Assembly (NCBI GenBank): GCA_041671565.1
Contig: JBAZBH010000002.1
Coordinates: 32,000-95,999, forward strand
Direction of reading: 5' to 3'
Source: Patescibacteria group bacterium
GTDB taxonomy: Bacteria; Patescibacteriota; Patescibacteriia; JACRDY01
Length of the DNA stretch: 64,000 bases
In this document: positions 18,421 through 61,462 of the stretch, one piece after another
Position numbering within the stretch: the stretch's first letter is position 1
Layout of the letters: each line of letters opens with the position of its first letter
The notes under the pieces: generated by a model
Told to the model about the DNA's origin: nothing
Databases searched by the model: none
What the model saw: only the letters and a program-made list of their open reading frames with translations
Translations under genes and position numbers: made by a program

Positions 18421-19026
18421 ATGTTTTCCAAAGAAACCAAATTCATCCTCGCCCTCGTCCTCATCTTATTTTTGGTTTTTTCCTACTGGCTAATTGTTTA
18501 CTCGCCAAAGGAAGCGCCAACGCCGGTGGTCTATGAAACCGGCCGGCCGGACCGCGGCGCGCCAGACGCCAAAACCGTAGTAACGCTTTATTTTGATTTT
18601 GGCTGTTCGCTTTGCCATGAAGCCAGTTTTGCCTTAGATAAAATTTATCAGCAGTATGGCAATGCGGTGTTGGTCAAATATCGCTATGTGCCTTTAACCG
18701 CTAATTCCATCATGGTGGAGGCGGCGGCGGAATGCGCTCAGCGCCAAGGCAAGTTTTTTGCTTACCGTGATTATTTATTTGCCAGTTCGGACACAGTTTG
18801 GACTGCGGAAAAGTTGAAAGCCGGCGCCGCGGCGAGCGGTTTAAATCAACCGCAGTTTGATGGTTGCTTAGATAACAAGGAAACCGAGGCCGTGGTGGAA
18901 TATGACGCTGGCCAGGCTTGGAAGCTGGGCGTGACCGCTACGCCGGCGCTTTTCTTGAACGGCCAGGCGGTGGAATTAAATAGCCTGGAGACGGCGGTAG
19001 CGCGGTCGATGGCGGCGGGACAATAA
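18421..19026 (+). CDS. DsbA/thioredoxin-fold thiol:disulfide oxidoreductase, membrane-anchored
   Basis: N-terminal TM; CSLC (CxxC) active site in FDFGCSLCHEA; DsbA-like C-terminal region. Confidence 0.7.
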   Translation: MFSKETKFILALVLILFLVFSYWLIVYSPKEAPTPVVYETGRPDRGAPDAKTVVTLYFDFGCSLCHEASFALDKIYQQYGNAVLVKYRYVPLTANSIMVEAAAECAQRQGKFFAYRDYLFASSDTVWTAEKLKAGAAASGLNQPQFDGCLDNKETEAVVEYDAGQAWKLGVTATPALFLNGQAVELNSLETAVARSMAAGQ

Positions 19027-19137: not shown

Positions 19138-19983
19138 ATGCATACCTATCTCCCCAGTAGCATTATCTTCCAACTCGGTTCCCTTAGTATTCATTGGTAC
19201 GGCCTTTTGGTGACGGCTGGATTTCTCGCCGGGTTGTTCGTTTTAGTCCGGCTGTTCCGGTTTTATGGCCGGCCGCCGGCCGAGGCTTATGACCTATTTT
19301 TTTATGTCATTATTTTTGGTTTACTGGGCGCCCGGATTTACTATGTGTTTTACGACTGGGCTTATTACAGCGGGCATTTAATCGATGTTTTTAAGGTTTG
19401 GCAGGGCGGCCTCGCCATCCACGGCGCCATTATCGCCGCGCTCCTGACCATTTATTTTTACTCTCGTCGCCGCGGCTGGACGGTCTTGGTGATAACTGAT
19501 ATAGTGGCGGCCTGCGTGCCGTTAGCGCTGGCCATTGGCCGCTGGGGCAATTATTTTAATCAAGAACTGTTTGGTCGGCCGACTAATCTGCCTTGGGGTA
19601 TTCCGATTAGCCTAGCTAACCGGCCGGCGGAATATATTACCAGCCAATATTTTCACCCGACATTTCTTTATGAAAGTCTGATGGACTTGGCGCTGGCGGC
19701 GGTTCTCCTGTGCTGGCATTGCCGGTGCTTAAAGCAAGCAGCCAAAAGCCAGTTAGAAGTCAGACCGGGAGAAATTACCCTAGGATTTTTATTTGGCTAC
19801 TCGCTGATCCGGTTTGTCACCGAATTTTGGCGGGTGGATTATTCGCCGCTGGTTTTTGGCCTGCGGTGGGCGCAGGTGTTGTCGGGGGTGGTGATGGTGG
19901 GAGTGATCGGTTTTTGGTTAAAAATAAAAACTCAAAACTCAAAGCTCGAAAGTCAAAACCACAGCTCAAAACTAAAAACTTAA
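19138..19983 (+). CDS. lgt: prolipoprotein diacylglyceryl transferase
   Basis: Lgt signature region GRWGNYFNQELFGRPT...PWG and conserved helices; low-complexity C-tail (KIKTQNSKLESQNHSSKLKT) is encoded by the downstream repeat element. Confidence 0.88.
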   Translation: MHTYLPSSIIFQLGSLSIHWYGLLVTAGFLAGLFVLVRLFRFYGRPPAEAYDLFFYVIIFGLLGARIYYVFYDWAYYSGHLIDVFKVWQGGLAIHGAIIAALLTIYFYSRRRGWTVLVITDIVAACVPLALAIGRWGNYFNQELFGRPTNLPWGIPISLANRPAEYITSQYFHPTFLYESLMDLALAAVLLCWHCRCLKQAAKSQLEVRPGEITLGFLFGYSLIRFVTEFWRVDYSPLVFGLRWAQVLSGVVMVGVIGFWLKIKTQNSKLESQNHSSKLKT

Positions 19984-26929: not shown

Positions 26930-27180
26930 GGCAGGATTTAAGATTTGGGATTTAATAGGATTTAAAGAAATTCGGCAATTCAAGTTTAAACCTTTAATTA
27001 TCGTTTAAAGTTCAAAACCCTAAGTTCAAGGTTCAAATCAAGTTCAAAGATCAAAAGGTGCCAGAGTTTTAGTCTTTGAACTTGATTTGAACTTTGCACT
27101 TTGAACTTTGGATTTTTAACCAAGTTATACCGCTAAGATGCTAATTTACAGGCATTCTTAAATCCTAAATCTATTGAATT
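26925..27180. repeat. nested palindromic intergenic element (gatttaa outer / ttcaaag inner)
   Basis: ggatttaagatttgggatttaa ... aagttcaaaaccctaagttcaaggttcaaatcaagttcaaagatcaaaagg ... ctttgaacttgatttgaactttgcactttgaactttgg ... cattcttaaatcctaaatc. Confidence 0.8.
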
Positions 27181-29681: not shown

Positions 29682-29684
29682 CGG

Positions 29685-29945
29685 GGATTTAAGATTTAAG
29701 ATTTAGGATTTAAGATTTAAGAATGGTGGTAATCAGCGTCTAAACCTCTAAATACCATTTTAAGTTCAAAACCCTAAGTTCAAAGTTCAAATCAAGTTCA
29801 AAGGCCAAAACTCCAATAGTCTTTTGATTTTTGAACTTGATTTGAACTTTGCACTTTGAACTTTGGATTTTTAATCAAATTGTATTGTAGGATGTTAATT
29901 TACCGACCATTCTTAAATCCTAAATCTTAAATCCTAAATCTCATT
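29685..29945. repeat. nested palindromic intergenic element (gatttaa outer / ttcaaag inner), most complete copy
   Basis: gatttaagatttaagatttaggatttaagatttaagaatg ... ttcaaagttcaaatcaagttcaaagg ... ctttgaacttgatttgaactttg ... cattcttaaatcctaaatcttaaatcctaaatc. Confidence 0.85.
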
Positions 29946-30164
29946 TCTCCCCTAGAGCCTTGATTATCGTCGAACAACCCCTTGGTCGGCGGCCATCAAC
30001 GCTTTATATATTTGGCGCTGGGTTCTCTGAAAATTTAACGATAGATTAACAAAAGGTTTTATCAAGTAGTTTAAGTTAGTTAGTGTTCAGTAGTGTGTTG
30101 TACCCAAAACCAACCTCCACCAAGGCTTGATCGCCGCGGGGAGAAAACAGAAGGAGACAGGAAA

Positions 30165-31295
30165 ATGAAGAAATCGATGGTTCTGGTTTACGCGCTGGCG
30201 ATCAGTCTGGTCGTCAGCGGTCTGGTGCTGGCGGAGGATTTTCCACCATTTCGTATTGGCATGGAAGCGATACATCACTGTGAGGTTGGGGCCGAATATG
30301 GAAAACTACTGCCGGCGCAGACAATCCCCACACAACCCGGAGGCAATAGCCTTTGTCGGGTGGACGGAGGATATGCAGTTGGACAGGAACTCCTGCGACT
30401 GGTCAGAGCTGGTTGTTCGGAACCTAAGCAAGCCGTGCATGTTAAAAATGAGAGAATTAAAGCTGGGATGGATGCCTTAAAGAATGCCGGCTGGGATATG
30501 AGCCGGGTGATAAAAGGTAACCCGGTGCCCGGCTTCGCCGGAGTTATTGTGACTTGTTCCGAAGAAACCACTGCCTCTTACAGCAATGTCACCAACAACA
30601 TGGCGAAGGCCATGAACATACCGGAAACCAAGAAGATTTTGGATCCCGGCGAAGCGCCGAAGTGGCAATTGGAAGGCGAGGGTGAAACTTTGCACTGGGT
30701 GCAGTATTTACCCAAAGATCCGCCATCTGGCTTCGGCAGTGGCATTAATGTTCGCCTGATCCTACCAGTCCAGCTCTTCTGGGGCTGGTATCCGTTGCCG
30801 TTCAAAGATAAAGAAAAAGAGTTCAAAAACTACAGTGACCAGGAGGCGATGGATAACGATTGGGACGATGTCCAATCGTTTGACGCCCAGCTGGGGCTGG
30901 AGTTTCGGATCGACGAGCGTTGGCTGGCGAGATTAGCCGCCGGCGCCGGCGTCGCCCATGTATTGACCACTGACCCGGGTGTTACTGATAGGAGCCAGCA
31001 TAACTTCTGGGGCCCACGGGCCTTAGTTGAGGTTGGTTATTCCTGGCAGCAAACTGATTGGTGGCTGGTCCTGGGCAGCCAATACAGCGCTTTCCGCCTT
31101 TCAGAATCGTTCAAGGCGAGCGAAGGCGGATTTACCGCGCCGCACATAGGGGTCGGGTACGGATCCCTGTTTTTGAAAGCAGGCTATTTCCTGCACTGGT
31201 ACCAAGTTAACCCGGGAAACTCCGATGTCAAACTGGGTGGCGGTTTTGCCGCCATGATCGGTTTGGAACCCATATACCCCTCGATAACCGAGTAA
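30165..31295 (+). CDS. secreted hypothetical protein
   Basis: ATG 30165 with AAGGAGA RBS; signal peptide MKKSMVLVYALAISLVVSGLVLA; Gly/aromatic-rich C-terminal region. Confidence 0.5.
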   Translation: MKKSMVLVYALAISLVVSGLVLAEDFPPFRIGMEAIHHCEVGAEYGKLLPAQTIPTQPGGNSLCRVDGGYAVGQELLRLVRAGCSEPKQAVHVKNERIKAGMDALKNAGWDMSRVIKGNPVPGFAGVIVTCSEETTASYSNVTNNMAKAMNIPETKKILDPGEAPKWQLEGEGETLHWVQYLPKDPPSGFGSGINVRLILPVQLFWGWYPLPFKDKEKEFKNYSDQEAMDNDWDDVQSFDAQLGLEFRIDERWLARLAAGAGVAHVLTTDPGVTDRSQHNFWGPRALVEVGYSWQQTDWWLVLGSQYSAFRLSESFKASEGGFTAPHIGVGYGSLFLKAGYFLHWYQVNPGNSDVKLGGGFAAMIGLEPIYPSITE

Positions 31296-31323
31296 AAACT
31301 CAAATCTCTGAAAGGAGAAAGCC

Positions 31324-33291
31324 ATGAAATGGCAAAACTGGTTCACTGCGTTCTTCATGATGGCGGCAGTTATACTGTTCGCCGGTTGCACTCCCGACAC
31401 GAATGATGACGGCACGGCTTCGGCCGACGCTTCGGCGACCGCTGATGACGATGCCGCCACGGACGACGACACCGCCGCGGATGATGATGCGGTGGATGAC
31501 GATGATGTTGATGATGATGTTGATGACGACGCCGATGACGACACCGCTCCGGTGTTGTGCGACGACGGCCTGTTCTGCAACGGCGTGGATACGGTTAACT
31601 CGGTGACGCAATTGTGCGTCCACACCGGCGATCCGTGCGTGGTTCAAGGTCTGGTCTGCAATGAAGCGACGAAGTCCTGCGACCCCGCCGCTACGACCAC
31701 GACCACGACGCCGCCAGCGACCACCACGACCACGGTAGCGCCGACGACAACGACGACCGTGGCTCCGACCACCACCACGACGATGGCGCCGACAACGACG
31801 ACCACGACGGTGGTGACGACGACCAGTACGACCACGACGACCGTGGGTACGCTGGTTTCCTGTTATGAAGACGCGGACGGCGACGGCTACGGTAACTGGA
31901 ATACAACGCCGGTTCAGTTCGTTGATGTCTGCCCGTTTGGCTACGCGTCGAACGGTACGGACTGCGACGAGACCGATGGGACAATTTATCCCGGTGCGCC
32001 GGAACAGCGTTATGGCATTGACAGCGACTGTGATGATGAACCGGCCGACTGCATTGACATGGTCGTAGTCAACGGTTTCTATTGCGTTGATTATGATCCG
32101 GAAACGGATATGCTGATGCTCTACGGCCCGCCGGACCAACTTGAATCCTGGAAATACCTCAACCATTTTGAAGAAAATGGGGTGACTTATTTCGATTATG
32201 TGGATGTGCCGTTCGAGGCATATTTCATGTGGTCTTTTACGGGTTGGGGCAACCGGTTCAATTTCAGCCAAATCGTCGGCGACGGCTGGTTCTATCTGGA
32301 TAACTCCCAGCCGGAGCTGGACGGGACGGAAGAAGACGCAGACGGCGTGGTCTTGAACCACGATCTCTTGGACTACGCCAACTGCGACCTGCCGACGGGT
32401 TGCGCGTTGGAAGCTTGGGGCCGTAATCCCCGTTCTTTGGTCAATGTGATGTCCGGCAGTTGGGATGATTATTGCATCGCGTTGACCATGAGCCTAGAAA
32501 ACCAAGGCGAATGGTTGGACGATGGCAATGGCAACGCCTTGGACTGGCTGGTGGCTTTGGACGAGTGTACGGCCGGCGCCGACAATACTGGCGTTGACAG
32601 CCAAGGAAGGCCGTTTTACTGGGTGAACACCGAGGATGTTCCTTGGATTCACTCCCAACAGTGCAGCCTATTAACGGTTCCGTCGGTTTTGAAGGCTTGC
32701 CTGGAAACGAAGGCGGAATTCGTCTTCTATATTCCTCCCGGCACGACCACGACGACGAGCACCACGACCACCACGAGCACCAGCACGACGACAGTGGCGC
32801 CCGGCACCACGACGACTGTGGCTCCGACGACCACGACGACGGTGGTGACCACGACTGTGGCTCCGACGACCACGACGACGGTGCCGGTGCTAAAGGGACT
32901 ATTAACCAACAACACCACGACCGATCAATTGGAGATTGATTGGCTGATCAGCGGTGGATTTGTTCTCGGCTTCCTGGAGCCATGGCCGAATACGGCGGAG
33001 ACACCGGTGGCGCTGGCAGGCATTGACCAAGTTTGCGTCGCGAGGAAGAATGGCTCGTGGCTGCAGACTTGCGTCGATTTTGATTCGGCCGGCAATGAAT
33101 TGATTTTTCCGTCGGCCGACGGAACCGTTACGACGGATTTCTGGCTGTGGATCAGTGACATCTTCGGTCAGGAGTATTGGCTTTACATTGACACTGTAAC
33201 GACGCCGTACGAGGCGCTGCGCTTTAACCTGGATGGTTTGGCAGCAGCAGCCGGCAGCGGCGACAAATGGTTACGACGAACCGCGCCGTAA
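31324..33291 (+). CDS. surface lipoprotein with poly-Asp tract, 8-Cys module and Thr/Pro-rich linkers
   Basis: lipobox LFAGC; D-rich run (DDDAATDDDTAADDDAVDDDDVDDDVDDDADDD); CDDGLFCNG...C..C..C module; (T)n-VAPTTTTT linkers between folded domains. Confidence 0.6.
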   Translation: MKWQNWFTAFFMMAAVILFAGCTPDTNDDGTASADASATADDDAATDDDTAADDDAVDDDDVDDDVDDDADDDTAPVLCDDGLFCNGVDTVNSVTQLCVHTGDPCVVQGLVCNEATKSCDPAATTTTTTPPATTTTTVAPTTTTTVAPTTTTTMAPTTTTTTVVTTTSTTTTTVGTLVSCYEDADGDGYGNWNTTPVQFVDVCPFGYASNGTDCDETDGTIYPGAPEQRYGIDSDCDDEPADCIDMVVVNGFYCVDYDPETDMLMLYGPPDQLESWKYLNHFEENGVTYFDYVDVPFEAYFMWSFTGWGNRFNFSQIVGDGWFYLDNSQPELDGTEEDADGVVLNHDLLDYANCDLPTGCALEAWGRNPRSLVNVMSGSWDDYCIALTMSLENQGEWLDDGNGNALDWLVALDECTAGADNTGVDSQGRPFYWVNTEDVPWIHSQQCSLLTVPSVLKACLETKAEFVFYIPPGTTTTTSTTTTTSTSTTTVAPGTTTTVAPTTTTTVVTTTVAPTTTTTVPVLKGLLTNNTTTDQLEIDWLISGGFVLGFLEPWPNTAETPVALAGIDQVCVARKNGSWLQTCVDFDSAGNELIFPSADGTVTTDFWLWISDIFGQEYWLYIDTVTTPYEALRFNLDGLAAAAGSGDKWLRRTAP

Positions 33292-33439
33292 TCGCATTTT
33301 ATTCACAACGCACCGGGGGCTTGGCAACGAGCCCCCGATTTTTTTTAAAAAAGAGGGGAAAATGGTATAATTTAACTAGTTACTAGTTAACTACTGATTT
33401 TTTATATTAGGTGGTAAATCGGCGTTTTAATGGCAAAAC

Positions 33440-33600
33440 ACGGTTAGAATGTCCAATAACCAAATTCCAATATCCAATCAATGCCCAATGCCAAAACTTC
33501 GTTATTGGACATTGGTCATTGGGTCCGCCGAATCGGCGGATGGACATTTGAGCTTGGTCATTGGTCATTGTTTTAAATCTTAAATCCTTCTTTGTGCCCC
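33440..33600. repeat. nested palindromic element, 'aatgtccaat' inner family
   Basis: aatgtccaataaccaaattccaatatccaatcaatgcccaatgccaaaa ... ttggacattggtcattgggtccgccgaatcggcggatggacatttgagcttggtcattggtcatt ... aatcttaaatcc. Confidence 0.8.
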
Positions 33601-35057
33601 ATTCTCATTCAGCCACCAAAATCAACTCTGAAGTTCTATTAACCATCTGGTCCATCGCCCTGGTCGGTCTTTTTGTTTTCGGCAGTTGGTACTTTTCCCT
33701 GAATCTTTTTTGGCTGTATCTTTTGTGTTTGGCGCCGGTGGGTATCGCGATTTTGAAATATCCGGCGATTGGCGCTTATGTGATCGTGTTTTGCACGCTG
33801 GTGTTTGAACGCTGGTTCACTTTACAGTCCATTCCTTGGGGCGACCAGCTGATTAAGTTTTATCCACTGGATTTGATTATTGTCTTTTGGCTGGTGGCGG
33901 TGGTTATAAGGTTATTAGCCGGAGAGCAAAAGCCGGTCTGGCCAAACCGGAAATTAGTCTGGGGACTGGGCATATTTTTTGCCGTGGTGCTCTTGAATTT
34001 CATCCGGGCGATTTTTGCCAAAGAAATTGATTTGGCGCTTGCCTTTTCCACGGTTAAAAACTTCGCGCTTTACGGCGTGATTTACTGGCTGATGATTAAC
34101 AGCTTATTAAATAGGGAACAGTGGCGACGGTTTTGCGGCGCGCTCCTAGCCGGCGGTCTGGCGCTCTGCTACTTCGTGGTTTACGGTTTTCTCACCGGTC
34201 GCGGACTGTGGATTGAGTATGTGCCGCTCTCAACTTGGGGCACGCGCCTACTCGGCGGGCCGCATAGTTTTTATCTCTTGATTTTGATTATTCTCTTAAT
34301 CAGCTGGCTGGTCGGTTCGGAGCGGCGCTTTAGCCGGCAAGACTATTTATATTTAGCTTTACTTTTGGTTTTTGGCTTGGGCCTGGTCGGCTCGCTCCAG
34401 CGGCATTTATGGCTCGCTTTGCCGCTTGGCCTCGGCGTAACGCTCTGGTTTTATCGGCCGGCGGAAAGGTGGCGGTTTTTACGGCTCGCTGGCTTGGGAG
34501 TAATGGCGGTGGTTTTTATCTTGGCGCTGTCGTTTTGGCTCGCTTCCTGGGAGTCCAGCAATTTTTTACTCGGGAGCGATATTATTAAATCACTGCAACT
34601 CCGCGTAGTGTCTTTTTTCAACTCGGCAGTGGAGGACTCCAGCGCGTACTGGCGGGTGCGGTCGTGGCAGCAGGCTTGGGAGTGGTTTAAAACTAACCCG
34701 CTCTTTGGTGTCGGCCTCGGGCGGCTTTTGAATTTTCAAGTTGATGATGTTAAACATTATATTCCGATGCGCGACCTGCATAACGACTTTGTTTCCGTTG
34801 CCGTCCAAATGGGCCTGGCCGGCATTTTGGCGTTTCTTTTTATGCTACTGCAGATTGGTCGGAGTTTCTTGGCCGTTTATCGGCGTTTACCAACCGCTGA
34901 TCGCCTGGTGTATACTGGCTTTTTCAGCCTAGTCGTAGTTTTCTTTTTTGTCGCCAACTTCGGCGTTTATCTGGACCTGAATCTTTATGTGGTTTGGTTG
35001 TGGCTGTTTTTGGGCAGTTTGACGGTGATAGAGAGATTAAATGGCTTAAAAGGTTAA
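33594..35057 (+). CDS. Wzy/O-antigen-ligase-family polymerase-like membrane protein
   Basis: about 10-12 TM helices; HYIPMRDLHNDFVSVAVQMGLAGI matches the Wzy_C H..N.y....E.G..G motif; no ATG near 5' end, GTG 33594 proposed (track start 33561 lies in repeat). Confidence 0.55.
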   Translation: MPHSHSATKINSEVLLTIWSIALVGLFVFGSWYFSLNLFWLYLLCLAPVGIAILKYPAIGAYVIVFCTLVFERWFTLQSIPWGDQLIKFYPLDLIIVFWLVAVVIRLLAGEQKPVWPNRKLVWGLGIFFAVVLLNFIRAIFAKEIDLALAFSTVKNFALYGVIYWLMINSLLNREQWRRFCGALLAGGLALCYFVVYGFLTGRGLWIEYVPLSTWGTRLLGGPHSFYLLILIILLISWLVGSERRFSRQDYLYLALLLVFGLGLVGSLQRHLWLALPLGLGVTLWFYRPAERWRFLRLAGLGVMAVVFILALSFWLASWESSNFLLGSDIIKSLQLRVVSFFNSAVEDSSAYWRVRSWQQAWEWFKTNPLFGVGLGRLLNFQVDDVKHYIPMRDLHNDFVSVAVQMGLAGILAFLFMLLQIGRSFLAVYRRLPTADRLVYTGFFSLVVVFFFVANFGVYLDLNLYVVWLWLFLGSLTVIERLNGLKG

Positions 35058-35059
35058 AA

Positions 35060-35245
35060 ATAGTGATAAATAATTTCGGTAATTAGGGTTTTAAGTTCAA
35101 AACCCAAAGATTCAAAGTTCAAATCAAGTTCAAAGGCCAAAATTGGCTTCACGCTGGTTCAAGGATAGTAATTTTGATATTTGAACTTGATTTGAACTTT
35201 GGATTTTGAACTTTGAGCTTCTCATTATGTTTATTAGAATAAAGA
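35060..35245. repeat. 'ttcaaag' palindromic element (inner type only)
   Basis: aagttcaaaacccaaagattcaaagttcaaatcaagttcaaaggccaaaa ... tttgaacttgatttgaactttggattttgaactttg. Confidence 0.8.
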
Positions 35246-35266
35246 CCTTTTAAAGTAGCGCCAATT

Positions 35267-36484
35267 ATGAAGATCCTCCAGGTTCACAAGTTCTACTATC
35301 CTCACCGCGGGGCGGAGAGTTATTTTTTTAATCTAATTGAGTTACTAGAGAAACACGGGCACGAAGTGGCGCCTTTTGCTATGGCTGACGGTAAAAACCG
35401 CCCCAGCCCGTACGCGGACTATTTTACCGGGAAGCTTGATGTTAGCCGGCCGGATTATTCGCTCCGATCAATCAAGAAAATCGGCAAGATTATTTATAAC
35501 CGGCAGGCCAAGGCCGACGCCAGCCGGTTGGTTCAGAAATTTCGGCCGGATATTGTCCATGTTCATAATATCTATCATCAACTGTCGCCAGCGGTTTTAG
35601 AAGCGTTTAAGGAAGCCGGCTTGCCAGTGGTGATGACCGTGCATGACTTCAACCTGATTTGCCCCAATTATTTACTCTATACCCACGGTCGAATTTGCGA
35701 GCGATGCCAGGGCGGCCGGTTTTACAATTGTTTACTCCATCGTTGCATTAAAGATTCGTTTGGCGCTTCGGCCGTTGGCGCGGCGGCGGCTTATTTTAAT
35801 CGTCTCGCGCGGATTTATGAGAAAAATGTTGATCTCTATATCGCTCCCAGCCAGTTTTTGAAAAATAAACTGGTGGAGTTTGGTTTTCCGCCAGAGAAAG
35901 TGGTTGTCTTGCCGCATTTTGTCCCGGCGGCCAAAACTCCGGCTAAAGGCGCGGGCAAATATATTTTGTATGCCGGCGCGCTCCGCGGCAATAAAGGCGT
36001 TAAAGAATTGATCCGGGCGTTCCGTGAAGTTGAGTTTGATGCAGATTTGCAGATTGCCGGCGACGGGCCGGAGCGGGTTAACTTAGAAAAACTGGTTCAA
36101 AAATTGGGTTTGACCGAACGAGTTAAGTTCCTCGGCCAGTTAGCTCGCCCGGAGCTAACCGCCGTGATTCGACACTCGCGCCTAGTCGTAGTGCCGTCGC
36201 TTTATCACGAAGTTTTTGGCTTGGCGGCATTGGAAGCGTTGGCCGAGGGCAAGCCGGTACTCGCCTCGTCGCTTGGCGCGCTCCCCGAAGTGGTGACCGG
36301 CGAAGTCGGCCAGATCTTTAACCCGGCGGAAAAAGGCTCACTCGGCCGCAGTTTAAACTGGCTTCTTAGTCAACCGAATCTCGGCGCGATGGGGGAGAAA
36401 GGGTGGGAGGCGGTTAAAGAGAGGTATAGTTCGGCTGAGCATTATCAGAGGTTGTTGGAAATCTATAAGAGATTTAAGATTTAG
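35267..36484 (+). CDS. GT4-family glycosyltransferase
   Basis: GT-B fold; EVFGLAALEALAEGKPVLASSLGALPEVV (E-x7-E motif). Confidence 0.85.
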   Translation: MKILQVHKFYYPHRGAESYFFNLIELLEKHGHEVAPFAMADGKNRPSPYADYFTGKLDVSRPDYSLRSIKKIGKIIYNRQAKADASRLVQKFRPDIVHVHNIYHQLSPAVLEAFKEAGLPVVMTVHDFNLICPNYLLYTHGRICERCQGGRFYNCLLHRCIKDSFGASAVGAAAAYFNRLARIYEKNVDLYIAPSQFLKNKLVEFGFPPEKVVVLPHFVPAAKTPAKGAGKYILYAGALRGNKGVKELIRAFREVEFDADLQIAGDGPERVNLEKLVQKLGLTERVKFLGQLARPELTAVIRHSRLVVVPSLYHEVFGLAALEALAEGKPVLASSLGALPEVVTGEVGQIFNPAEKGSLGRSLNWLLSQPNLGAMGEKGWEAVKERYSSAEHYQRLLEIYKRFKI

Positions 36485-36720
36485 GATTTAAGATTTAAGA
36501 ATGTCGGTATCCGGTGTTTAAACCGATAACCGAGGTTAAAATGTCCAATATCCAAATCCCAATGTCCAATCAATGCCCAATGACCAAAGGTGGTAATCCC
36601 GAAGCGACCCCGTTGTGGCTTGGACATTGGTCATTGGGTCCGCCGAATCGGCGGATGGACATTGGAGCTTGGGCATTGGTCATTTATTCTTAAATCTTAA
36701 ATCCTAAATCTTTTTCTTGA
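36480..36720. repeat. nested palindromic element (gatttaa outer / aatgtccaat inner)
   Basis: gatttaagatttaggatttaagatttaagaatg ... aatgtccaatatccaaatcccaatgtccaatcaatgcccaatgaccaaagg ... ttggacattggtcattgggtccgccgaatcggcggatggacattgg ... ttcttaaatcttaaatcctaaatc. Confidence 0.85.
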
Positions 36721-36723
36721 GCC

Positions 36724-38766
36724 ATGCCTAAATTCCGCCTAAATATCATCGCCCTTCTTACCGTGGCTAGTCTGCTCGCGGTGGCTTTTAGCTTTAAAAC
36801 AGCGACTGATGCCGGCACGGTGAGGCAGTTCCCGCGCCTTGCCAATTATTACCTAGAGACGCCGATCACCGACGATCAGGTGCCGCAGTTGGCCAAGTGG
36901 GATTTGTTGATTCTCGGCGTGCAAGCGCAAACGGTTTGCCCGGAGCAGATTCGGAAAATCCGCGCCTTGAATCCTAAAATTAAAATTCTCGCTTATGTTT
37001 TGTCCGAGGAATTTCGTTTCGGCGACTATCAACAAATCGAGTCGCCAACCGGGCCTTATCATCAGATTTTAGCGGGCATTCAAGATGGTTGGTGGATGCT
37101 ACAGCCTGATGGCAGTCGTTACTCATTTTGGCCCGGGCATCAGATGATTAATGTGACTGACGCGGCGGCGCCGAATAGCCAAGGTGACCGCTGGAACACT
37201 TATTTGCCGAAATTAATGCACGCTCAAGTGATGTCCACCGGGCTCTGGGATGGAATTTTTTATGACAATGTCTGGGGTTCGCTCGCTTGGCAGAACAACG
37301 GCAATTTTGACATTAACCGCGATGGTCAGAAAGATGACCCGGCGGTCCTTAATCAAGCTTGGAACGCAGGCATGCGGAAAATGCTGGCATTATCGCGCCA
37401 ACTGGAAGGCCCGGGCGCGATCATTATTGGCAACGGCAGTAATGAGTTTAAAGAGTCGCTCAACGGCCGGCTGATTGAGGGCGGGTCGTGGAGCGATTGG
37501 ACGACCGACCAGCAGAATTATGTTGATTTTATGCGGACCGGCCTGCCGCCGCAGTCCACGGTGGTTAATAACAACACGCAAAATCTCGGCGGGGAGAATA
37601 ATTACCGTTTGATGCGCTTTGGCCTGACTTCCACTCTCCTTGATAACGGCTATTACAGTTTTGACTGGGGCACCGAAGACCATAGCCAGCTTTGGTGGTA
37701 TGACGAATATAATGTCGATCTGGGCCGTCCGACCGGCGCCGCTTATAACCTAGATAACAGCTCGGCGGCAGTGGCGCGCGGCTTTTGGCGGCGGGATTTT
37801 GAGAACGGGGTAGTGTTTGTTAATGCGACTGCCGCGCCGCGAGTAGCGATTTTGGGTGAGGAAGAGCTGGAAAAAATCTCCGGCGGGCAAGATCGGGCGG
37901 TTAACGACGGCTCGCGCATCAATTTTGTCCGTCTGGGCGCGAACGAAGGGCTGATGGTTTTGCGGCCGCTTTCGGAAATCATTGGCAGCCCGTTCACCAA
38001 CGGTTATTTTGTCCGAGTGTTTAATACTACGGGCGTCCGCCAGCGGGGCGGCTTTTACACTTACAAAAAACAATTCGCGGGTTCGGCCAAAATTATCACT
38101 AGCGATATTGACGCGGACGGCGAGTGGGAAACCGTGGTGGCGTCGGGCGGCCGGGTGGCTATTTACGGTTCCAGCGGTTTATTGGAAAAGGCGTTCTGGC
38201 CGTATGGCGCGGCATATCGCGGCGCGATCAGCCTGGCGGCGGGCGAGACCAACAATGATGGCTGGCAAGAAATTGTAACCGCGCCGGGCGCGGGTGGAGT
38301 TGGCGCGGTGAAGATTTTTAACTGGCAAGGCGAAAACATCGGCCCAAATTTTTATGTTTACGGCGATAAATACCGCGGCGGGGTCAATTTAGCGCTGGGT
38401 GACTTGGACGGCAATGGCGCCAGTGAAATTATCGTTGGCGCGGCGACTGGCGGCCCGCAGCTGCGGATTTTTAATGGCGCTGGCAAATTAATCTCGGCCG
38501 GCTGGTTTGCTTATGACAAAAATCAGCGCGGCGGGGTTAGAATTGCCGCGGGTGATTTAACCGGTGACGGCCGGGCGGAGATCGTGACTGTGCCGGGCGT
38601 GGGCCAAAAGGCCGAAATCAAGGTCTGGAACAGCCGCGGCGTCATGCAAGGCCAGCCTTGGTTGGCGCTCGCCGCGACCAACCGCAGTGGCGCCGAAGTG
38701 GCGGTGAATGACATCAATCGGGATGGGATAATGGAAATACTGGTTAGTAGTCTTAATACTTTTTAA
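36724..38766 (+). CDS. secreted protein: N-terminal putative glycoside-hydrolase-like TIM-barrel domain fused to C-terminal FG-GAP beta-propeller repeats
   Basis: signal/TM anchor; LANYYLE..DLLIL..IKILAYV region resembles 'GHL' hypothetical glycosyl hydrolase families; C-terminus has repeated D.D.DG..E.. motifs (DIDADGEWE, GDLDGNGASEIIVG, GDLTGDGRAEIV, NDINRDGIMEIL). Confidence 0.5.
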   Translation: MPKFRLNIIALLTVASLLAVAFSFKTATDAGTVRQFPRLANYYLETPITDDQVPQLAKWDLLILGVQAQTVCPEQIRKIRALNPKIKILAYVLSEEFRFGDYQQIESPTGPYHQILAGIQDGWWMLQPDGSRYSFWPGHQMINVTDAAAPNSQGDRWNTYLPKLMHAQVMSTGLWDGIFYDNVWGSLAWQNNGNFDINRDGQKDDPAVLNQAWNAGMRKMLALSRQLEGPGAIIIGNGSNEFKESLNGRLIEGGSWSDWTTDQQNYVDFMRTGLPPQSTVVNNNTQNLGGENNYRLMRFGLTSTLLDNGYYSFDWGTEDHSQLWWYDEYNVDLGRPTGAAYNLDNSSAAVARGFWRRDFENGVVFVNATAAPRVAILGEEELEKISGGQDRAVNDGSRINFVRLGANEGLMVLRPLSEIIGSPFTNGYFVRVFNTTGVRQRGGFYTYKKQFAGSAKIITSDIDADGEWETVVASGGRVAIYGSSGLLEKAFWPYGAAYRGAISLAAGETNNDGWQEIVTAPGAGGVGAVKIFNWQGENIGPNFYVYGDKYRGGVNLALGDLDGNGASEIIVGAATGGPQLRIFNGAGKLISAGWFAYDKNQRGGVRIAAGDLTGDGRAEIVTVPGVGQKAEIKVWNSRGVMQGQPWLALAATNRSGAEVAVNDINRDGIMEILVSSLNTF

Positions 38767-38769
38767 GGT

Positions 38770-38935
38770 TGTTTAAATTTCTAAGCATCGTTTAAAGTTC
38801 AAAACCCTAAGTTCAAAGTTCAAATCAAGTTCAAAGATCAAAAGGTGCCAGAGTTTTGGCTTTTGAACTTGATTTGAACTTTGGATTTTGGATTTTGCAC
38901 TTCTGTTTGTGTTTATTGGTTTAAACGCCAACTAC
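38770..38935. repeat. 'ttcaaag' palindromic element
   Basis: aagttcaaaaccctaagttcaaagttcaaatcaagttcaaagatcaaaagg ... tttgaacttgatttgaactttggattttgg. Confidence 0.8.
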
Positions 38936-38963
38936 CACCAGCTTAAATTTATATTTAAAATAT

Positions 38964-40793
38964 ATGTCAAAATTAATCGATCTCACCTTCGGCCCTTGGC
39001 GCTTCATCGTCCGCCGTCTGCACCGTCGCTATCAAGTCCGCTACAAATTCAACCGCAAGCACCTGGTGGCTGATTTGATTATGTTTTTGGCGGTGGTTGT
39101 TTTGATCCTCGGCAATCTTTATTTAAACCTGATTTTTGCTAAATGGGCGATTGCCCTCAAAGTCAGGACCGAAATCGCGGTCAGCGAGATTGTCCAAAAC
39201 GGCAGTGAAACTAAGATCGCGGTCAGATATTTTAACAGCAATAAAACCGATGTTTTGCGCGGCGCGTTGTTAAAATTGGACTTGCCGGTAAGTTTTCAGG
39301 CCGAAACGGCAAGCGACCCGCGGTATGACCTCAAAACCGGCGCGATCAGCCTCGGCGATATTTTGCCGGGGAAAGGCGGCGCGCTAGAATTAACCGGTGA
39401 AGTTTGGGGCGACAGCGGCAGTGAGGCTAAAATTTTCAGCCATCTTAGTTATACTCAGGAAAATCAGGGTAGCGGTTTAAGTTGGTCAGCCGAGCGGCTC
39501 GGGTCAGCCAGTTACCGTATCAGCGGCTCGGTAGTCGGTTGCCAATTGACGATGCCGGAAACCGCTGTAAATCAAAGCGCGTTTGATTTTAATCTCGCTT
39601 GCGCCAATAATTATCGGGAAAAATTGGGTAATTTAGAAGTTAAGCTTAACGCCGATAGCGGACAAATAATCGACAGTACGGTCGGGCCGTTTAATGAGCT
39701 TGGGGCCGGGGAGAAAACTGATTTTTCCGCTCGCGCTCGGTTTAATTTGCCGGAAAAGGCTGACCGCGGCCGCCTCGGTTATCAACTGTTTGGCCAGGCG
39801 CCAGACGGTCGGCGTTTGCTCTTGGATCAAGGAGAAACTTCAGTTAATATTTTTCACGCCCATTTCAGCGTTAAAGCCGAGTTAATCGGCCAGGCGGCTG
39901 ATTACGCGCCGCTGCCGGGCGAGGAACTGGAATATCGTCTGGTTTATCAGAATAACGAAAAAGAGGCGATCAAATATCTAGCCATTAGCGTAGATTTAAC
40001 CAGCCCGCTGTGGGATATAACTTCGGTTAAGGGTGATCAAACTTTTGCCTTTTCCGACCGGCAGTTGATTTTTGCCGAACGCGGCGAGACCTCTCCGGGC
40101 AAGCGCGGCGTGCTGGCACCGGGTCAAAGTGAAGAATTTAAATTTAAAATTAAAACCGTCAAAACGGTTGTTGCCGGTTTAACTCCGCCGGTTTATTTAA
40201 TACTGGCGCCGGTGGCTGATTATTCGTTGCTGGTGAATGGCGTTGATTTTGCGGTGACGGTTGACGGGCAGGCGAGCAAAAATCTTTTGAGCTCCAGTCT
40301 TGATTTAGAAGCCCTCGCCCGTTATTACACTGCTGAAGGCGAACAGCTAGGCGTTGGGCCCTTGCCGCCGGCGGTCGGTATTCCAACTAAGTACCGGATT
40401 TTTTGGCAGGTGAGTGTTAGCTACAATCCGGTCAGTGAGATTAAAGTTGTTGGCACGCTCGCGCCGAATGTCAGCTGGACCGGCCAAGAAAGTGTCAGCG
40501 CCGGCGCCGGATTAAACTTTGACCCCAAAACCAACCAGATCTCCTGGGCGCCGGGCGTTGCCGCGGCTCTCACCGGCTACGGCTCATTGCCGCAGAGCGC
40601 CAACTTTGCTTTGTCTTTAATCCCGCTCGCGAGCCAAATCGGCCGGCCGGCGGTTTTACTAGAGGACATCACTATCACCGGCCGCGACCAAACCACTGGC
40701 CGCGAACTCCGCCAAACCATTCCCAGTATTACCACGGACTTGTTTTCTGACCCGCTGGGGAGGGGGAAGGGGAGGGTGGTGAATTGGGAATAA
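38964..40793 (+). CDS. hypothetical membrane-anchored protein with large extracytoplasmic domain
   Basis: basic N-terminus, single TM (LIMFLAVVVLILGNLYLNLIFA), ~540 aa beta-rich domain; Gly-rich tail. Confidence 0.45.
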   Translation: MSKLIDLTFGPWRFIVRRLHRRYQVRYKFNRKHLVADLIMFLAVVVLILGNLYLNLIFAKWAIALKVRTEIAVSEIVQNGSETKIAVRYFNSNKTDVLRGALLKLDLPVSFQAETASDPRYDLKTGAISLGDILPGKGGALELTGEVWGDSGSEAKIFSHLSYTQENQGSGLSWSAERLGSASYRISGSVVGCQLTMPETAVNQSAFDFNLACANNYREKLGNLEVKLNADSGQIIDSTVGPFNELGAGEKTDFSARARFNLPEKADRGRLGYQLFGQAPDGRRLLLDQGETSVNIFHAHFSVKAELIGQAADYAPLPGEELEYRLVYQNNEKEAIKYLAISVDLTSPLWDITSVKGDQTFAFSDRQLIFAERGETSPGKRGVLAPGQSEEFKFKIKTVKTVVAGLTPPVYLILAPVADYSLLVNGVDFAVTVDGQASKNLLSSSLDLEALARYYTAEGEQLGVGPLPPAVGIPTKYRIFWQVSVSYNPVSEIKVVGTLAPNVSWTGQESVSAGAGLNFDPKTNQISWAPGVAAALTGYGSLPQSANFALSLIPLASQIGRPAVLLEDITITGRDQTTGRELRQTIPSITTDLFSDPLGRGKGRVVNWE

Positions 40794-40794
40794 A

Positions 40795-40930
40795 AGGGAG
40801 ATTTAAGATTTAGGATTTAAGATTTAAGAATGGTCGGTAGCCAGCGTTTAGACTAAAAACCATAGGTTTAAGGAAACTCAATGCGGAGTTTATTCTTAAA
40901 TCTTAAATCTTAATTCTTAAATCTTTTTCT
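40795..40930. repeat. 'gatttaa' outer-arm palindrome with a distinct short core
   Basis: gatttaagatttaggatttaagatttaagaatg ... tattcttaaatcttaaatcttaattcttaaatc. Confidence 0.8.
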
Positions 40931-41252
40931 CTAATTTTAGCCGTTTTTTCTGCCTGTCAGAAAAGGCGGTTTTTTTAGTTGACAAAAATCTCTGACCGTG
41001 GTAAGGTAGGGCGTTAAGTTCGTTGACAATGGAATGTCACACTAAATAAAAAGGGAGGAGGAATCCTCGCTGATTCCTCGCATTTTTTGTTTTTAACCAA
41101 AAAAACCAAAAGGAGGAATTAAAAAGGGTTCAGTTCAGAGTCAAAAAATAGAGAATCTTAGAAAAATTCAGAAACCGCCCCTTTGGGGCAATAAAACAAA
41201 AAAATTAGAATCACCGCGCCCCAGAAAGGCGCACAAACCATGGAGTAGGAAA

Positions 41253-42596
41253 ATGAAACGCAGTTTGTTCCTTTTTTGTCTCATCATCACCGTGATGATG
41301 GGCGTTGTCGCTTGCAATAGCAGTGATGACGATGACAACGGAGCCACCGCCGACGACACCAATGACGGCGGCGACGACATCGATGACGACGCGATTGATG
41401 ATGATGGCAGTGACGACACCGGCGACGACGACACGGTCGCAGAAACGATGAATCTGAAAATGTCGGTGCCTCTTACCGAGTACACCGCCGCCGCCCAGTA
41501 TGGGCGATTCAGTGAAGTGTGGGAAGATGGTACGCCGGGCGATTTTTATGCCGAAAGTCCGGTGAATTATAGCGCCGACTCCGGCCAGATTTTTGCCGCG
41601 GCTGACGCGCCGGTTACTGTGGTGCGGATTACCGTCGACATTATCAAGGCCGACGGCACGCCGGTTGGTCCTGGCATTACGCCGACGCCGACATTCACGC
41701 GGAACGGGAGCCCGTTGTACCCTTCGGGGTACTATACGGATCCGAACGAAAATCCGGATACTGGCACCAGCGGCTGGATTCTCTATCCCGCCGGTACCGG
41801 CACGACCACGACGACCACGCAGGCACCCACTACCACAACGACTCAGGCGCCGACCACGACGACCACGGTGGCACCGACTACCACGACCACCGAGTTGCCG
41901 ACCACTACGAGCACGGTGGCGCCTACTACGACGACTGTGGCTCCGACGACGACCACCACCTCTGAGCCGCCGACCACGACGAGCACGGTGGTCACCACCA
42001 CGACGGGGATGACCACGACGACGATTCCGCCGACGGTGACGGAGATTTTCGACGGGGTTACCTCGGTGGAGATCAGTAATCTGCAGGTTGTCAACGGCAA
42101 TTTGCAGAATTTTTCCCATGTGGCGGCGAATGGCAGTTCGCTGGGCACGCCTATCTCGGCGGCCAATGTGATTGCGATTCAGGTCGCGATCGACTATGTC
42201 GATCCCGCGAATTTCCCGGAACTGCTGGTGAGCGGCGTGACGGCGGCGGGTTCATATCCTGTCGTGACCTCAGCCATCGCCGGTCTGGAATACACCATTC
42301 GCGTCCGGCTGGCCGATGGCAGCTCGGGCTGGGCCTGGCTGGACGCCAGTTTTGCCGTTATTGGCGGGACGATTCAGCCGATTGGGCCGCCGATCAACGG
42401 GAATCGGGTCGTTCGCGATGCGTTCAGCATCACGGCCGGCCTTTGGAGCCGCGCGGCCGTGGAAGCCCTGAATGGCGGCACCGTGACCGGGCTACTTTTC
42501 CGGCAGTGCACGGAGTATGCCGACGGGACGAAGGAATGCGTTACTCGGCCGCTCAGTGTCGGCAGTGTCAATCTCGGCGGCGACGCCTATTATTGA
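41253..42596 (+). CDS. surface lipoprotein with poly-Asp tract and Thr-rich linkers (paralogous architecture to 31324..33291)
   Basis: lipobox VVAC; SSDDDDNGATADDTNDGGDDIDDDAIDDDGSDDTGDDD; QAPTTTTT/VAPTTTTT linker repeats; linker-coding DNA (accacgacgacc)n near-identical to that in 31324..33291. Confidence 0.6.
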   Translation: MKRSLFLFCLIITVMMGVVACNSSDDDDNGATADDTNDGGDDIDDDAIDDDGSDDTGDDDTVAETMNLKMSVPLTEYTAAAQYGRFSEVWEDGTPGDFYAESPVNYSADSGQIFAAADAPVTVVRITVDIIKADGTPVGPGITPTPTFTRNGSPLYPSGYYTDPNENPDTGTSGWILYPAGTGTTTTTTQAPTTTTTQAPTTTTTVAPTTTTTELPTTTSTVAPTTTTVAPTTTTTSEPPTTTSTVVTTTTGMTTTTIPPTVTEIFDGVTSVEISNLQVVNGNLQNFSHVAANGSSLGTPISAANVIAIQVAIDYVDPANFPELLVSGVTAAGSYPVVTSAIAGLEYTIRVRLADGSSGWAWLDASFAVIGGTIQPIGPPINGNRVVRDAFSITAGLWSRAAVEALNGGTVTGLLFRQCTEYADGTKECVTRPLSVGSVNLGGDAYY

Positions 42597-42721
42597 CCGG
42601 CTGTCCGGCCACTTTTATTCACAGCACGACACGCGGCGGGGAACCATTCCCCGCCGCCTTTTTAATATAAAAGTCCAGAGTCCAGAGTCCAGAGAAAGCC
42701 AAGAGTTTAGAGTTCAGAGCG

Positions 42722-43090
42722 TTATTTTTTAAAACTTCTAAGTTTAGCTACAAAAGCGTAGGTTAATTTAGAAGTTTCTATTAGCAGGCCTTCAGTTTTT
42801 CGGAATTGCTCTGGCTTGCCAAAACCTAGGCTTTTGGCAATTAATAGCTGGGTTTCCAATTCCATTAGCGAACCGCGACTGATTAAGATAAATCTGGCAA
42901 AATCGCCGTCGGATCTTCGGCCGTAGCCTTCAGCGATGTTAGATGGGACAGAAACCGCCGCTCGGCGGATTTGCGTGGTTAGACCAAAAAGCTCGGCTTG
43001 GGGAAACGAAGCGGTTAACTCATAGACGGTTTTGACCAAATCAATGGCTTTTTGCCAAACGATTAGGTCTTGGTAGGATTTGAATAGCAT
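42722..43090 (-). CDS. four-helix-bundle protein ('23S rRNA intervening-sequence protein' family)
   Basis: YQDLIVWQKAIDLVKTVYELT...SNIAEGYGRRS...RGSLMELETQL is the signature of the TIGR02436-type family; here free-standing on the minus strand, not inside an rRNA. Confidence 0.8.
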   Translation of the reverse strand: MLFKSYQDLIVWQKAIDLVKTVYELTASFPQAELFGLTTQIRRAAVSVPSNIAEGYGRRSDGDFARFILISRGSLMELETQLLIAKSLGFGKPEQFRKTEGLLIETSKLTYAFVAKLRSFKK

Positions 43091-45149: not shown

Positions 45150-45300
45150 ACAGGGAATTTCTAATTCTTAATTTAAAATTTTTAATGAATTTATAATGTT
45201 TAATTCTTAATTTTAATTTCCAACCAAGTTCGTGGTTATTTAAAATTAAACCTTAAAAATTGATTAAAAATTAGGAATTTTAAATTAAAAATTATTGAGC
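45150..45300. repeat. AT-rich palindromic element (copy 2 of the 7106-7253 family)
   Basis: aattcttaatttaaaatttttaatgaatttataatgtttaattcttaatt ... ccaaccaagttcgtggttatt ... aaaattaggaattttaaattaaaaatt. Confidence 0.8.
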
Positions 45301-47139: not shown

Positions 47140-47351
47140 TTAGCAAATTCTTGGTTCGCCGGCGTTTCGGCAAATAAAGAGTTTGGTGACTAGTTCACCG
47201 ATTAATGAAGCTGTGAAGACCCGCAAGGTCGATTCGCCGTCAGGCGAAGTTTTCACAATTAAAAAAATAAAAGCTATTTCGGCTCGAGGTTAGCGCATCC
47301 CAATTGGGCGGTAATCTTGACTGAAAGGCTTAATAAAGAAAAAAGGTTATT

Positions 47352-61460: not shown

Positions 61461-61462
61461 TT

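Follow-up and report, generated by a model that had tools for sequence, protein, structure and literature searches.

What might be the role of a bacterial lipoprotein in which the anchor cysteine is followed directly by some forty to fifty residues, half of them aspartate, and then by folded segments strung together on threonine-rich linkers? The question is raised by two genes, here called A and B, in a 64,000-nucleotide stretch of DNA from a Patescibacteria group bacterium (assembly GCA_041671565.1, contig JBAZBH010000002.1, positions 32,000 to 95,999; hereafter the window, to which coordinates refer unless a related locus is named). The Patescibacteria, or Candidate Phyla Radiation (CPR), are generally regarded as bacteria that live in attachment to other cells, and to our knowledge very few CPR surface proteins have been characterised. 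An earlier reading of this DNA (the original prediction) had taken A and B for paralogues with repeats prone to length variation; our analysis corrects it on both counts, as A and B are not paralogues and their repeats are not evidently hypervariable. What the two proteins have in common is a design. Judging from their sequences, we see about an even chance that they are lineage-specific surface-display lipoproteins, built with a polyanionic disordered tether and mucin-like spacers.

Two predicted lipoproteins of one layout

Both open reading frames (ORFs) lie where the original prediction had placed them, at 31324..33291 and 41253..42596, according to the ORF list and to public gene calls. 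Public gene callers call A at 655 aa and B at 443 or 447 aa, both on the + strand, and the NCBI record for protein B carries the name 'hypothetical protein [Patescibacteria group bacterium]'. The N-terminus of A reads MKWQNWFTAFFMMAAVILFAG and then C22, with K2 as the basic n-region, residues 3-21 uncharged and an LFAG-C lipobox, and that of B reads MKRSLFLFCLIITVMMGVVA and then C21, with K2 and R3, residues 4-20 uncharged and a GVVA-C lipobox. Each has the basic n-region, the uncharged h-region and the lipobox Cys between positions 15 and 35 that mark a lipoprotein. A lipoprotein regular expression also picks up both N-termini, and both fit, by eye, what we take to be the PROSITE lipobox pattern PS51257; the lipoboxes that had been noticed in the two ORFs are valid, and so are the signal peptides. 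The lipoprotein reading is backed further by an Lgt gene in the window, which together with a DsbA-like thioredoxin provides enzymes expected for lipidated, disulfide-bonded secreted proteins such as A (Table 1); Lsp was not found among the ORFs scanned in the 64 kb. Beyond the anchor Cys, A has 20 cysteines, divided among its modules as 6, 12 and 2, and B has a single pair; such even counts are consistent with extracytoplasmic disulfides in both proteins. All of their folded modules are acidic.

The Asp-rich run described for both proteins does begin directly after the Cys, and extends over 39-51 aa at 51% Asp, with cores of 56-67%. In A, residues 23-73 hold 26 Asp in 51 positions (51%), the core at residues 41-73 reaching 67%; the corresponding figures for B are 20 of 39 in residues 22-60 (51%), and 56% in the core. 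Neither tract contains a single Glu, Lys or Arg, so that their net charges are -26 and -20, and the excess of Asp over a 6% background corresponds to a binomial P of 1e-15 to 1e-19. The folded segments are joined, as had also been proposed, by Thr-rich linkers, three in all, which are 62-66% Thr and made of xAPTTTTT units; with 6-11% Pro and a net charge of 0 to -2, they have the composition of uncharged Thr/Pro-rich interdomain segments. No other poly-Asp or poly-Thr ORF occurs in the 64 kb window. The long ORFs reported antisense to the two genes, at 31300..32361 and 41211..42119 on the - strand, do exist, and their earlier dismissal as artefacts is reasonable: it is the + strand genes that have the Shine-Dalgarno sites, signal peptides and terminators, and the antisense frames, for which independent support was not found, are best taken as a by-product of the codon composition of A and B. 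For gene A, the Shine-Dalgarno sequence is a strong one, AAGGAG at 31312-31317, 6 nt ahead of the ATG.

The likeness of A and B, which had been put down to paralogy, does not extend to their sequences. BLASTP between them gives no significant alignment (best E=2.6), and domain searches with the two proteins return disjoint matches. A and B are unrelated by descent, with a modular display architecture in common and not an ancestor; as they are non-homologous and yet laid out alike, the architecture itself is the shared thing. Homologues outside their own population were not found either, except for a common motif in A and weak matches to B, in word-based searches of 5.8 billion proteins and, for the C-terminal domain of B only, a full HMMER search of 1.84 billion representatives. 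Sequence searches of the PDB with A and B gave nothing below E=0.1, and an NCBIfam scan gave only noise from the signal peptides.

The common motif in A is a MopE-type module at residues ~180-241, which reads CYEDADGDGYG...C...DCDE...YPGAPE...D.DCDD. PF11617 matches A residues 176-475 with 27.5 bits against a gathering cutoff of 27 and is not reported when A is scanned at full length; the match is therefore borderline. With phmmer, A matched 237 proteins in the MopE module only (40-59% identity over 7-30% of the query), all of which carry PF11617, which corroborates the profile match; their named sources are mostly Myxococcota or 'Deltaproteobacteria' metagenome-assembled genomes (MAGs), together with one Patescibacteria protein. 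The module is single in A, and the tandem array usual in the family is not seen. For A minus this module, the word-based search detected no relative.

With B, the word-based search returned B itself only. The full HMMER search with its C-terminal domain returned itself, a repeat-motif match (P0123) and, at E=7e-4, a protein with two cystatin domains (P0124; PF00031 at 6e-15). B and P0124 align with a pairwise E of 5e-7 and an hhalign probability of 44%, and the alignment covers the cystatin core. The cystatin-like signal, which is weak, falls on B residues ~295-384 and includes a loop S-A-I-A-G, to be compared with the Q-V-V-A-G (QxVxG) of cystatins; Pfam has no match to the C-terminal domain even at E<=10. 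A cystatin-like domain in this region is to be taken as a lead, and not as an assignment.

Table 1. Predicted features of genes A and B and of their surroundings in the window
Feature	Position	Strand	Basis or remark
Gene A, 655-aa predicted lipoprotein	31324..33291	+	ORF list; 655 aa also in public assemblies
A signal peptide and lipobox L-F-A-G-C22	31324..31389	+	sequence; lipoprotein regular expression
A polyanionic tether, residues 23-75, 26 Asp, net charge -26, Glu/Lys/Arg 0	31390..31548	+	composition
A Cys-rich knob, residues 76-120, 6 Cys	31549..31683	+	no family match
A Thr linker 1, residues 121-176, 64% Thr, xAPTTTTT units	31684..31851	+	
A middle domain, residues 177-472, 12 Cys	31852..32739	+	MopE-type module and orphan remainder
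A MopE-type module, residues ~180-241	31861-32046	+	PF11617 profile match
A Thr linker 2, residues 473-519, 66% Thr	32740..32880	+	
A C-terminal orphan domain, residues 520-655, 2 Cys	32881..33288	+	no homologues, no Pfam match
Intrinsic terminator 3' of gene A	33314..33337	+	10-bp GC-rich stem, then T run
ORF antisense to A, 353 aa, Arg/Gly/Val-rich	31300..32361	-	ORF list
376-aa secreted beta-rich protein upstream of A	30165..31295	+	376 aa also in public gene calls
Gene B, 447-aa predicted lipoprotein	41253..42596	+	ORF list; NCBI MFA6993206.1, MFA6533565.1
B signal peptide and lipobox G-V-V-A-C21	41253..41315	+	
B polyanionic tether, residues 22-60, 20 Asp, Glu/Lys/Arg 0	41316..41432	+	starts C-N-S-S-D-D-D-D
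B N-terminal orphan domain, residues 61-181	41433..41795	+	no homologues, no Pfam match
B Thr linker, residues 182-257, 62% Thr	41796..42023	+	
B C-terminal domain, residues 258-447, Cys pair 419/429	42024..42593	+	
Intrinsic terminator 3' of gene B	42633..42657	+	11-bp stem, 9 GC pairs
Terminators upstream of B	40939-40971 and 41058-41079		
ORF antisense to B, 302 aa, Arg/Gly-rich	41211..42119	-	ORF list
23S-rRNA-intervening-sequence protein gene, tail-to-tail with B in its slot	42722-43090	-	PF05635 E=1e-38; bAvd E=0.025
Wzy_C-family membrane protein, directly downstream of A, first of the Wzy_C/GT4/GHL15/FG-GAP/p609 block	33561..35057	+	
DsbA-like thioredoxin	18421..19026	+	PF13462 E=6e-21, PF01323 E=2e-10
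Lgt, prolipoprotein diacylglyceryl transferase	19138..19983	+	PF01790 E=7e-68

Slots in an envelope-glycan cluster

A and B stand in a cluster that begins with Wzz, the beta-rich ORF and A, Wzy_C, a GT4 gene, GHL15/FG-GAP and a 609-aa protein (p609), and continues with B, the 23S-rRNA-intervening-sequence protein gene on the opposite strand, a second GT4 gene, an extracytoplasmic function (ECF) sigma factor, DUF5667 and a 1232-aa orphan. When the cluster proteins were compared by tblastn with 61 related loci (L numbers), the enzymes proved to be syntenic, and A and B were without counterpart. The order Wzz-slot-Wzy_C-GT4-GHL15/FG-GAP-p609-slot-GT4-ECF sigma is kept in relatives from the Falkowbacteria, Magasanikbacteria and Uhrbacteria, and relatives of the GHL15/FG-GAP neighbour come from these groups, from the Buchananbacteria and from unclassified Patescibacteria MAGs. 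A and B may thus lack homologues because they occupy variable slots of a conserved envelope-glycan cluster, in which evolution would be fast.

In loci that include sequence upstream of the conserved block and have a Wzy_C orthologue at its head, the slot preceding Wzy_C is occupied by A in the window, by two lipoproteins with a lipobox followed by (DTDS)n or (DT)n in L027, by a (DT)n Cys-rich protein in L031, and by a lipobox-(DT)n protein together with a MopE-repeat protein in L007; in L020 there is Wzz and no lipoprotein. The B slot, from p609 to GT4, is vacant in most relatives, and elsewhere holds an unrelated lipoprotein (L020) or an unrelated secreted or membrane protein (L046). A pattern scan of about 1 Mb of related DNA gave 28 lipoprotein candidates, a few of them probably spurious ORFs. 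In only five of the 28 does Asp make up 33% or more of the first 40 residues of the mature protein; these are A, B and three in L027 and L007, and all five are in slots. A look for poly-Asp lipoproteins in related CPR genomes, which the original prediction had put forward as a check, thus turns up acidic-tract lipoproteins in the L027 and L007 slots. The MopE module is the one point of homology between the slot proteins and A or B, so that what recurs is an architecture and a location, and not a family. Full-text searches of the literature brought up no paper on poly-Asp lipoproteins in CPR.

The slot genes of the relatives also stand out in composition, with GC content at third codon positions (GC3) of 0.66-0.92 against 0.36-0.41 in their neighbours, and an overall GC of 56-65% against 37-43% (GC-rich regions: L007 600-5600; L020 7293-8900; L025 1326-2915; L027 96-7026; L031 1-2253; L033 2700-5405; L051 1395-6012). 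For A and B the deviation is mild, with GC3 of 0.69-0.72 against a window mean of 0.56 (sd 0.07) and GC of 57% against 47%. From the contrast at the relatives' slots it would seem that foreign genes have been captured there time and again, or that mutation follows a different regime. In L027 2786-7026, and also in L031 1-2253, the (DT)n tracts of the Magasanikbacteria are encoded by perfect 12-nt repeats, (GACACGGACACC)n, that run for hundreds of bases; in the L027 region, moreover, there are overlapping ORFs in different frames, and two copies of an N-terminal segment, at 5181 and 6310. These 12-nt repeats could reflect true slippage or phase variation, or else assembly collapse, and the genes that carry them, unlike A and B, would be good contingency-locus candidates.

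Within the window, gene A is separated by 28 nt from the upstream ORF for the 376-aa protein, with which it is probably co-transcribed. The C-terminal half of this protein consists of alternating-hydrophobic strands, and the outer membrane protein (OMP) beta-barrel family PF13505 matches it below threshold (E=0.011, 16.4 bits against a cutoff of 28.7), an OMP-like signal that one would not expect in this lineage, since the few members described so far are monoderm. In L027 (96-527, ending ...GGEF) and L033 (2789-3964), too, the acidic lipoproteins come after beta-rich ORFs; no homology between these ORFs and the 376-aa one was detected. Gene B looks monocistronic, because terminators bracket it. 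As for the gene that faces B tail to tail, the idea that B is the target of a diversity-generating retroelement was considered and rejected: no repeat pairs with the B 3' end were found in the window, and no reverse transcriptase among the scanned ORFs.

Elsewhere in the cluster, FG-GAP fusions occur with a GHL15 putative glycoside hydrolase and an S8 subtilase (36724-38766, 54163-56244), and a second Wzy_C-family gene lies in the window at 7254-8537. The ECF sigma factor, DUF5667 and the 1232-aa protein, which has no Pfam match, form a block (45474-51050) that is syntenic in L029, L037, L042 and L054 and may be a sigma/anti-sigma/surface-protein module of the same envelope cluster.

Many intergenic spacers of the window hold a long imperfect hairpin, in which tandem 7-8-mers (AGATTTA, GTTCAAA, AATGTCC and others) face a complementary arm, often nested. 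Such spacers were seen at 7099-7248, 12437-12685, 18302-18410, 19928-20108, 27003-27120, 29683-29950, 35107-35207, 36485-36723, 38795-38902, 40799-40924, 45156-45294, 51188-51301, 58491-58636, 61336-61464 and elsewhere; 34 inverted pairs of at least 30 nt were counted, and elements of different spacers match one another at 61-97% identity. For the spacer at 36485-36723, which is 239 nt long, the folding energy is -100 kcal/mol (z = -8.6). A scan of the whole window found no Rfam family at gathering threshold in these spacers, and the elements may be terminators, insulators or a family of repeat elements. SmpB (20114-20575) is immediately followed by tmRNA (20668-21071, 107.6 bits), which is flanked on either side by 95-nt CACAGAT-repeat copies at 20561-20655 and 21071-21165 that are 82% identical.

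Proposed display at the surface and its alternatives

If A and B are indeed surface-display lipoproteins, each would be exported and then modified by Lgt with a diacylglyceryl group at Cys22 (A) or Cys21 (B), and would so be anchored to the cytoplasmic membrane, in its outer leaflet. Residues 1 to 40-50 of the mature protein would form a disordered polyanionic tether, kept extended by repulsion within itself and from the anionic membrane, and the uncharged xAPTTTTT segments would serve as stiff, probably O-glycosylated, mucin-like spacers. Altogether ~155 low-complexity residues in A and ~115 in B might thus push the acidic, disulfide-bonded modules through the wall to the surface; by a rough estimate, such spacers would reach over tens of nanometres, which should be enough to cross a wall. 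The modules on display would be the Cys knob, the MopE-type metal/Ca-binding module and the orphan domains of A, and possibly a cystatin-like domain in B, and they would presumably bind a ligand or a partner cell. With a metal/Ca-binding module and possibly a cystatin-like fold among them, the modules are more suggestive of binding than of catalysis. In support of display, the MopE-type module of A is common to many lipobox-bearing proteins. A precedent is found in monoderm bacteria, whose membrane-anchored lipoproteins span the wall (PMC7530257).

We infer that A and B are lipidated, that their low-complexity segments are disordered, extended and glycosylated, and that the proteins are exposed at the surface and bind there; several points weigh against this explanation. 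The scan of the window found no PMT-type protein O-glycosyltransferase. A spacer role alone does not explain why the tether should be made of Asp instead of Gly or Ser. The architecture of the CPR envelope is poorly documented (PMC8871954). No orthologues of A or B were found in which the conservation of the tracts might be judged. AlphaFold2, run without alignments because A and B have no homologues, gave unusable models (pLDDT 39.5 and pTM 0.26 for A; pLDDT 36.5 and pTM 0.20 for B). Lastly, the non-homologous look-alikes in the relatives could perhaps be a compositional quirk of foreign GC-rich genes: given the elevated GC3, the likeness may partly reflect a GC-rich composition that favours Asp, Thr, Ala and Gly codons.

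An alternative already implied in the original prediction is that A and B are contingency loci, in which slippage, or recombination between linkers, varies protein length or shuffles domains. The linker DNA had been called nearly identical within and between the two genes, and an obvious substrate for such events; the repeats turn out to be degenerate. Aligned copies of the linker DNA are 60-73% identical, and Tandem Repeats Finder reports a period of 24 with 69-77% matches in A linker 1, 68% in the B linker and 65-83% overall, which falls short of the near-perfect tandem repeats of contingency loci. The longest exact stretches common to different linkers are of 14, 15 and 23 nt, the last between A linker 2 and the B linker. 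Inside single linkers the longest exact repeats are of 10-17 nt, with one exception, a perfect direct repeat of 33 nt in A linker 2 (at 32812 and 32851, an offset of 39 nt), which is the sole long perfect repeat in either gene. The Thr codons of the linkers are mixed (ACG, ACC, ACT, ACA) and the peptide units are much more alike than the DNA; a peptide kept with mixed synonymous codons suggests that the units are retained as peptide, old and stable, and do not form a recently slipped array. Even so, ACG accounts for 50-61% of the Thr codons in the linkers, compared with 23% elsewhere among the genes of the window; the linkers thus stand apart in composition, and an expansion may at some time have lengthened them. 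This bias, the 24-nt tandem units, the 33-nt and 23-nt matches and, in relatives, the perfect 12-nt repeats and overlapping frames of the (DT)n tracts (L027) would all suit a contingency locus. Against it stand units that are only 60-83% identical, exact repeats that mostly do not exceed 17 nt, and the fact that slippage would be in frame, in multiples of 3, which makes an on/off switch of expression impossible. Both genes, complete or partial, are also present in three other assemblies (NCBI GCA_041666405.1, ENA ERZ27249449 and Logan contigs of SRR6484324), with zero differences and no length variants in A or B; over 17-21 kb, the only differences are at 25078, 35759 and 43425. Length variation in the population was judged from look-ups of the exact proteins, and since these assemblies may share one sample, they are weak evidence against length polymorphism. 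We consider contingency loci unlikely. The identity of the sequence in the NCBI MAG, the ENA assembly and two Logan contigs is, on the other hand, good evidence against an assembly chimera. That the ORFs are not real genes, or are chimeras collapsed across repeats, is hardly credible: it could appeal to low-complexity DNA open on both strands and to a break of the short-read assembly in A linker 2, where the Logan contig with A (SRR6484324_491796, L066) ends at 32841. This break sits exactly in the 33-nt repeat, and would be technical if the repeat exceeds the word size of the assembler, in which case it could also mimic heterogeneity; and Shine-Dalgarno sites, signal peptides, lipoboxes, even Cys counts and terminators all speak for real genes.

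Other alternatives concern the acidic tract itself, for which cation or mineral binding and electrostatic spacing had both been offered. Electrostatic spacing fits best among these, because the tract adjoins the anchor Cys, is without basic residues and has (DT)n/(DS)n counterparts in related CPR slots. That poly-Asp should be chiefly a binder of divalent cations (Ca2+/Mg2+) or minerals at the membrane surface, whether it serves to store cations, to connect with wall polymers or an S-layer, or to control the nucleation of carbonate or phosphate, seems doubtful to us. It would agree with the 20-26 carboxylates in 39-51 residues, with the lack of competing basic residues, with the 'putative metal-binding motif' of MopE type in A, and with thrombospondin-type-3-like Asp-rich repeats in slot proteins of L051 and L026; calsequestrin and the shell protein Aspein, which are Asp-rich, bind Ca2+ with low affinity and high capacity. 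The tracts are, however, without a canonical Ca2+ loop (DxDxDG or EF-hand), the (DT)n or (DS)n tracts of the relatives have half the charge density, and the scanned neighbourhood has no gene for metal transport or mineralisation. On chemical grounds the Asp tract is likely to bind cations, as any poly-Asp plausibly would, and this is compatible with a spacer; we would rank such binding as a secondary property and not as the purpose of the tract. We think it very unlikely that the acidic run behind the Cys serves to sort the protein, or to export it across an outer layer, in the manner of the Bacteroidota or of type II secretion, even if the C-N-S-S-D-D-D-D of B resembles the S-D-D-D-D of Bacteroides fragilis (PMC5080379), the surface lipoproteins of A. 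baumannii offer a precedent in the Asn/Asp-rich motif after their Cys (P1'-P8', in type II secretion-dependent Acinetobacter; PMC12802150), and a beta-rich, weakly OMP-like protein is encoded upstream of A. The Bacteroidota export signal takes no more than 2-5 acidic residues, whose placement at +2 to +6 is critical, whereas the tracts here start at +4/+5 and run for 40-50 residues; the described CPR are monoderm (PMC8871954), the OMP match lies below its cutoff, and transport machinery was not identified. The Bacteroidota signal in particular, K-(D/E)2 or S-D-D-D-D, was rejected on comparison, as A has TPDTNDD at +2 to +8, the NSSDDDD of B is offset by two positions and the host belongs to the Patescibacteria. 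Finally, the tracts might be a decoy for cationic antimicrobial peptides or other polycations, or a shield from them, as has been proposed for the negatively charged regions of the surface lipoprotein LbpB, an idea that suits a high local negative charge on a surface-anchored lipoprotein and has a precedent in a paper titled 'The Negatively Charged Regions of Lactoferrin Binding Protein B, an Adaptation against Anti-Microbial Peptides' (PMC3896470). It strikes us as highly improbable, since the tract is membrane-proximal and not distal, and so poorly placed to intercept peptides, and since contextual evidence for it was not found.

Display of modules on a charged tether thus remains the explanation that we prefer. 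One might speculate further that the slots upstream of Wzy_C and between p609 and GT4 form a lineage-wide 'display cassette', which would repeatedly capture foreign or very fast-evolving Cys-rich lipoproteins with elevated GC3 and polyanionic tethers, as the adhesins with which such episymbionts touch hosts or surfaces. We regard this extension as rather unlikely on present sequences; if true for the Falkowbacteria, Magasanikbacteria, Uhrbacteria and unclassified Patescibacteria, it would make the polyanionic tether (poly-Asp, (DT)n/(DS)n) a wall-crossing device typical of CPR, and possibly also a means of docking, over Ca2+ bridges, to the glycan that the neighbouring genes produce. The useful outcome of the analysis is the recurrence of an architecture and a location, that is, of an anchor, a polyanionic tether, spacers and Cys-rich modules in variable slots. 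If A and B are displayed as we propose, this would give a sequence-independent rule for choosing candidate adhesins from CPR genomes, and a simple example of a charged disordered tether as a wall-spanning spacer.

Comparison with known systems

The slot lipoproteins of L007, L027 and L031 resemble A in that each has a lipobox and is placed immediately or shortly upstream of the Wzy_C/GT4/GHL15 block, with Cys-rich modules and elevated GC/GC3; their acidic tracts start within ~10-25 residues of the Cys, and L007 has the MopE module. They differ from A and B in that the tracts are perfect dipeptide repeats from perfect 12-nt DNA repeats, and in having no APTTTTT linkers. The MopE-related (PF11617) proteins, common in Myxococcota and found also in Patescibacteria, have the same module as A. 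Among the matches listed, 43 of 120 have a lipobox-like N-terminus; dedicated poly-Asp tracts and Thr linkers are absent throughout. MopE proteins have 5-10 tandem modules, whereas A has one and is for ~80% of its length without relatives, and B has none. The export signal of Bacteroidota is a matter of 4-5 residues in a diderm phylum (PMC5080379); the tracts of A and B run to 40-50 residues, are offset and belong to a CPR organism.

Comparable in layout is LpqH, the 19-kDa lipoglycoprotein of Mycobacterium tuberculosis, in which, as in A and B, a lipobox Cys is followed by an unstructured low-complexity segment and then a folded domain. A Thr cluster just after its lipidated Cys is O-mannosylated, and the modified N-terminal region ends at ~residue 41, ~20 residues past Cys22 (PMC5341126). 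A and B have no homology to LpqH, and differ from it by tethers of 39-51 residues with 51% Asp and no basic residues, and by separate Thr linkers of 47-76 residues. The tethers of such lipoproteins are usually rich in Ser, Gly, Thr or Ala. The linkers of A and B have their likeness in the 'PT-box' linkers of actinobacterial cellulases, which are O-glycosylated, extended and protected from proteases, and in mucin-like stalks, all of them uncharged Thr/Pro/Ala-rich repeats between extracytoplasmic modules; A and B, however, are predicted lipoproteins and not enzymes with carbohydrate-binding modules, and their linkers are low in Pro (6-11%). The design thus resembles tethered lipoproteins on the one hand and PT-linker proteins on the other, and what sets it apart is the length of the tether and its extreme Asp content.

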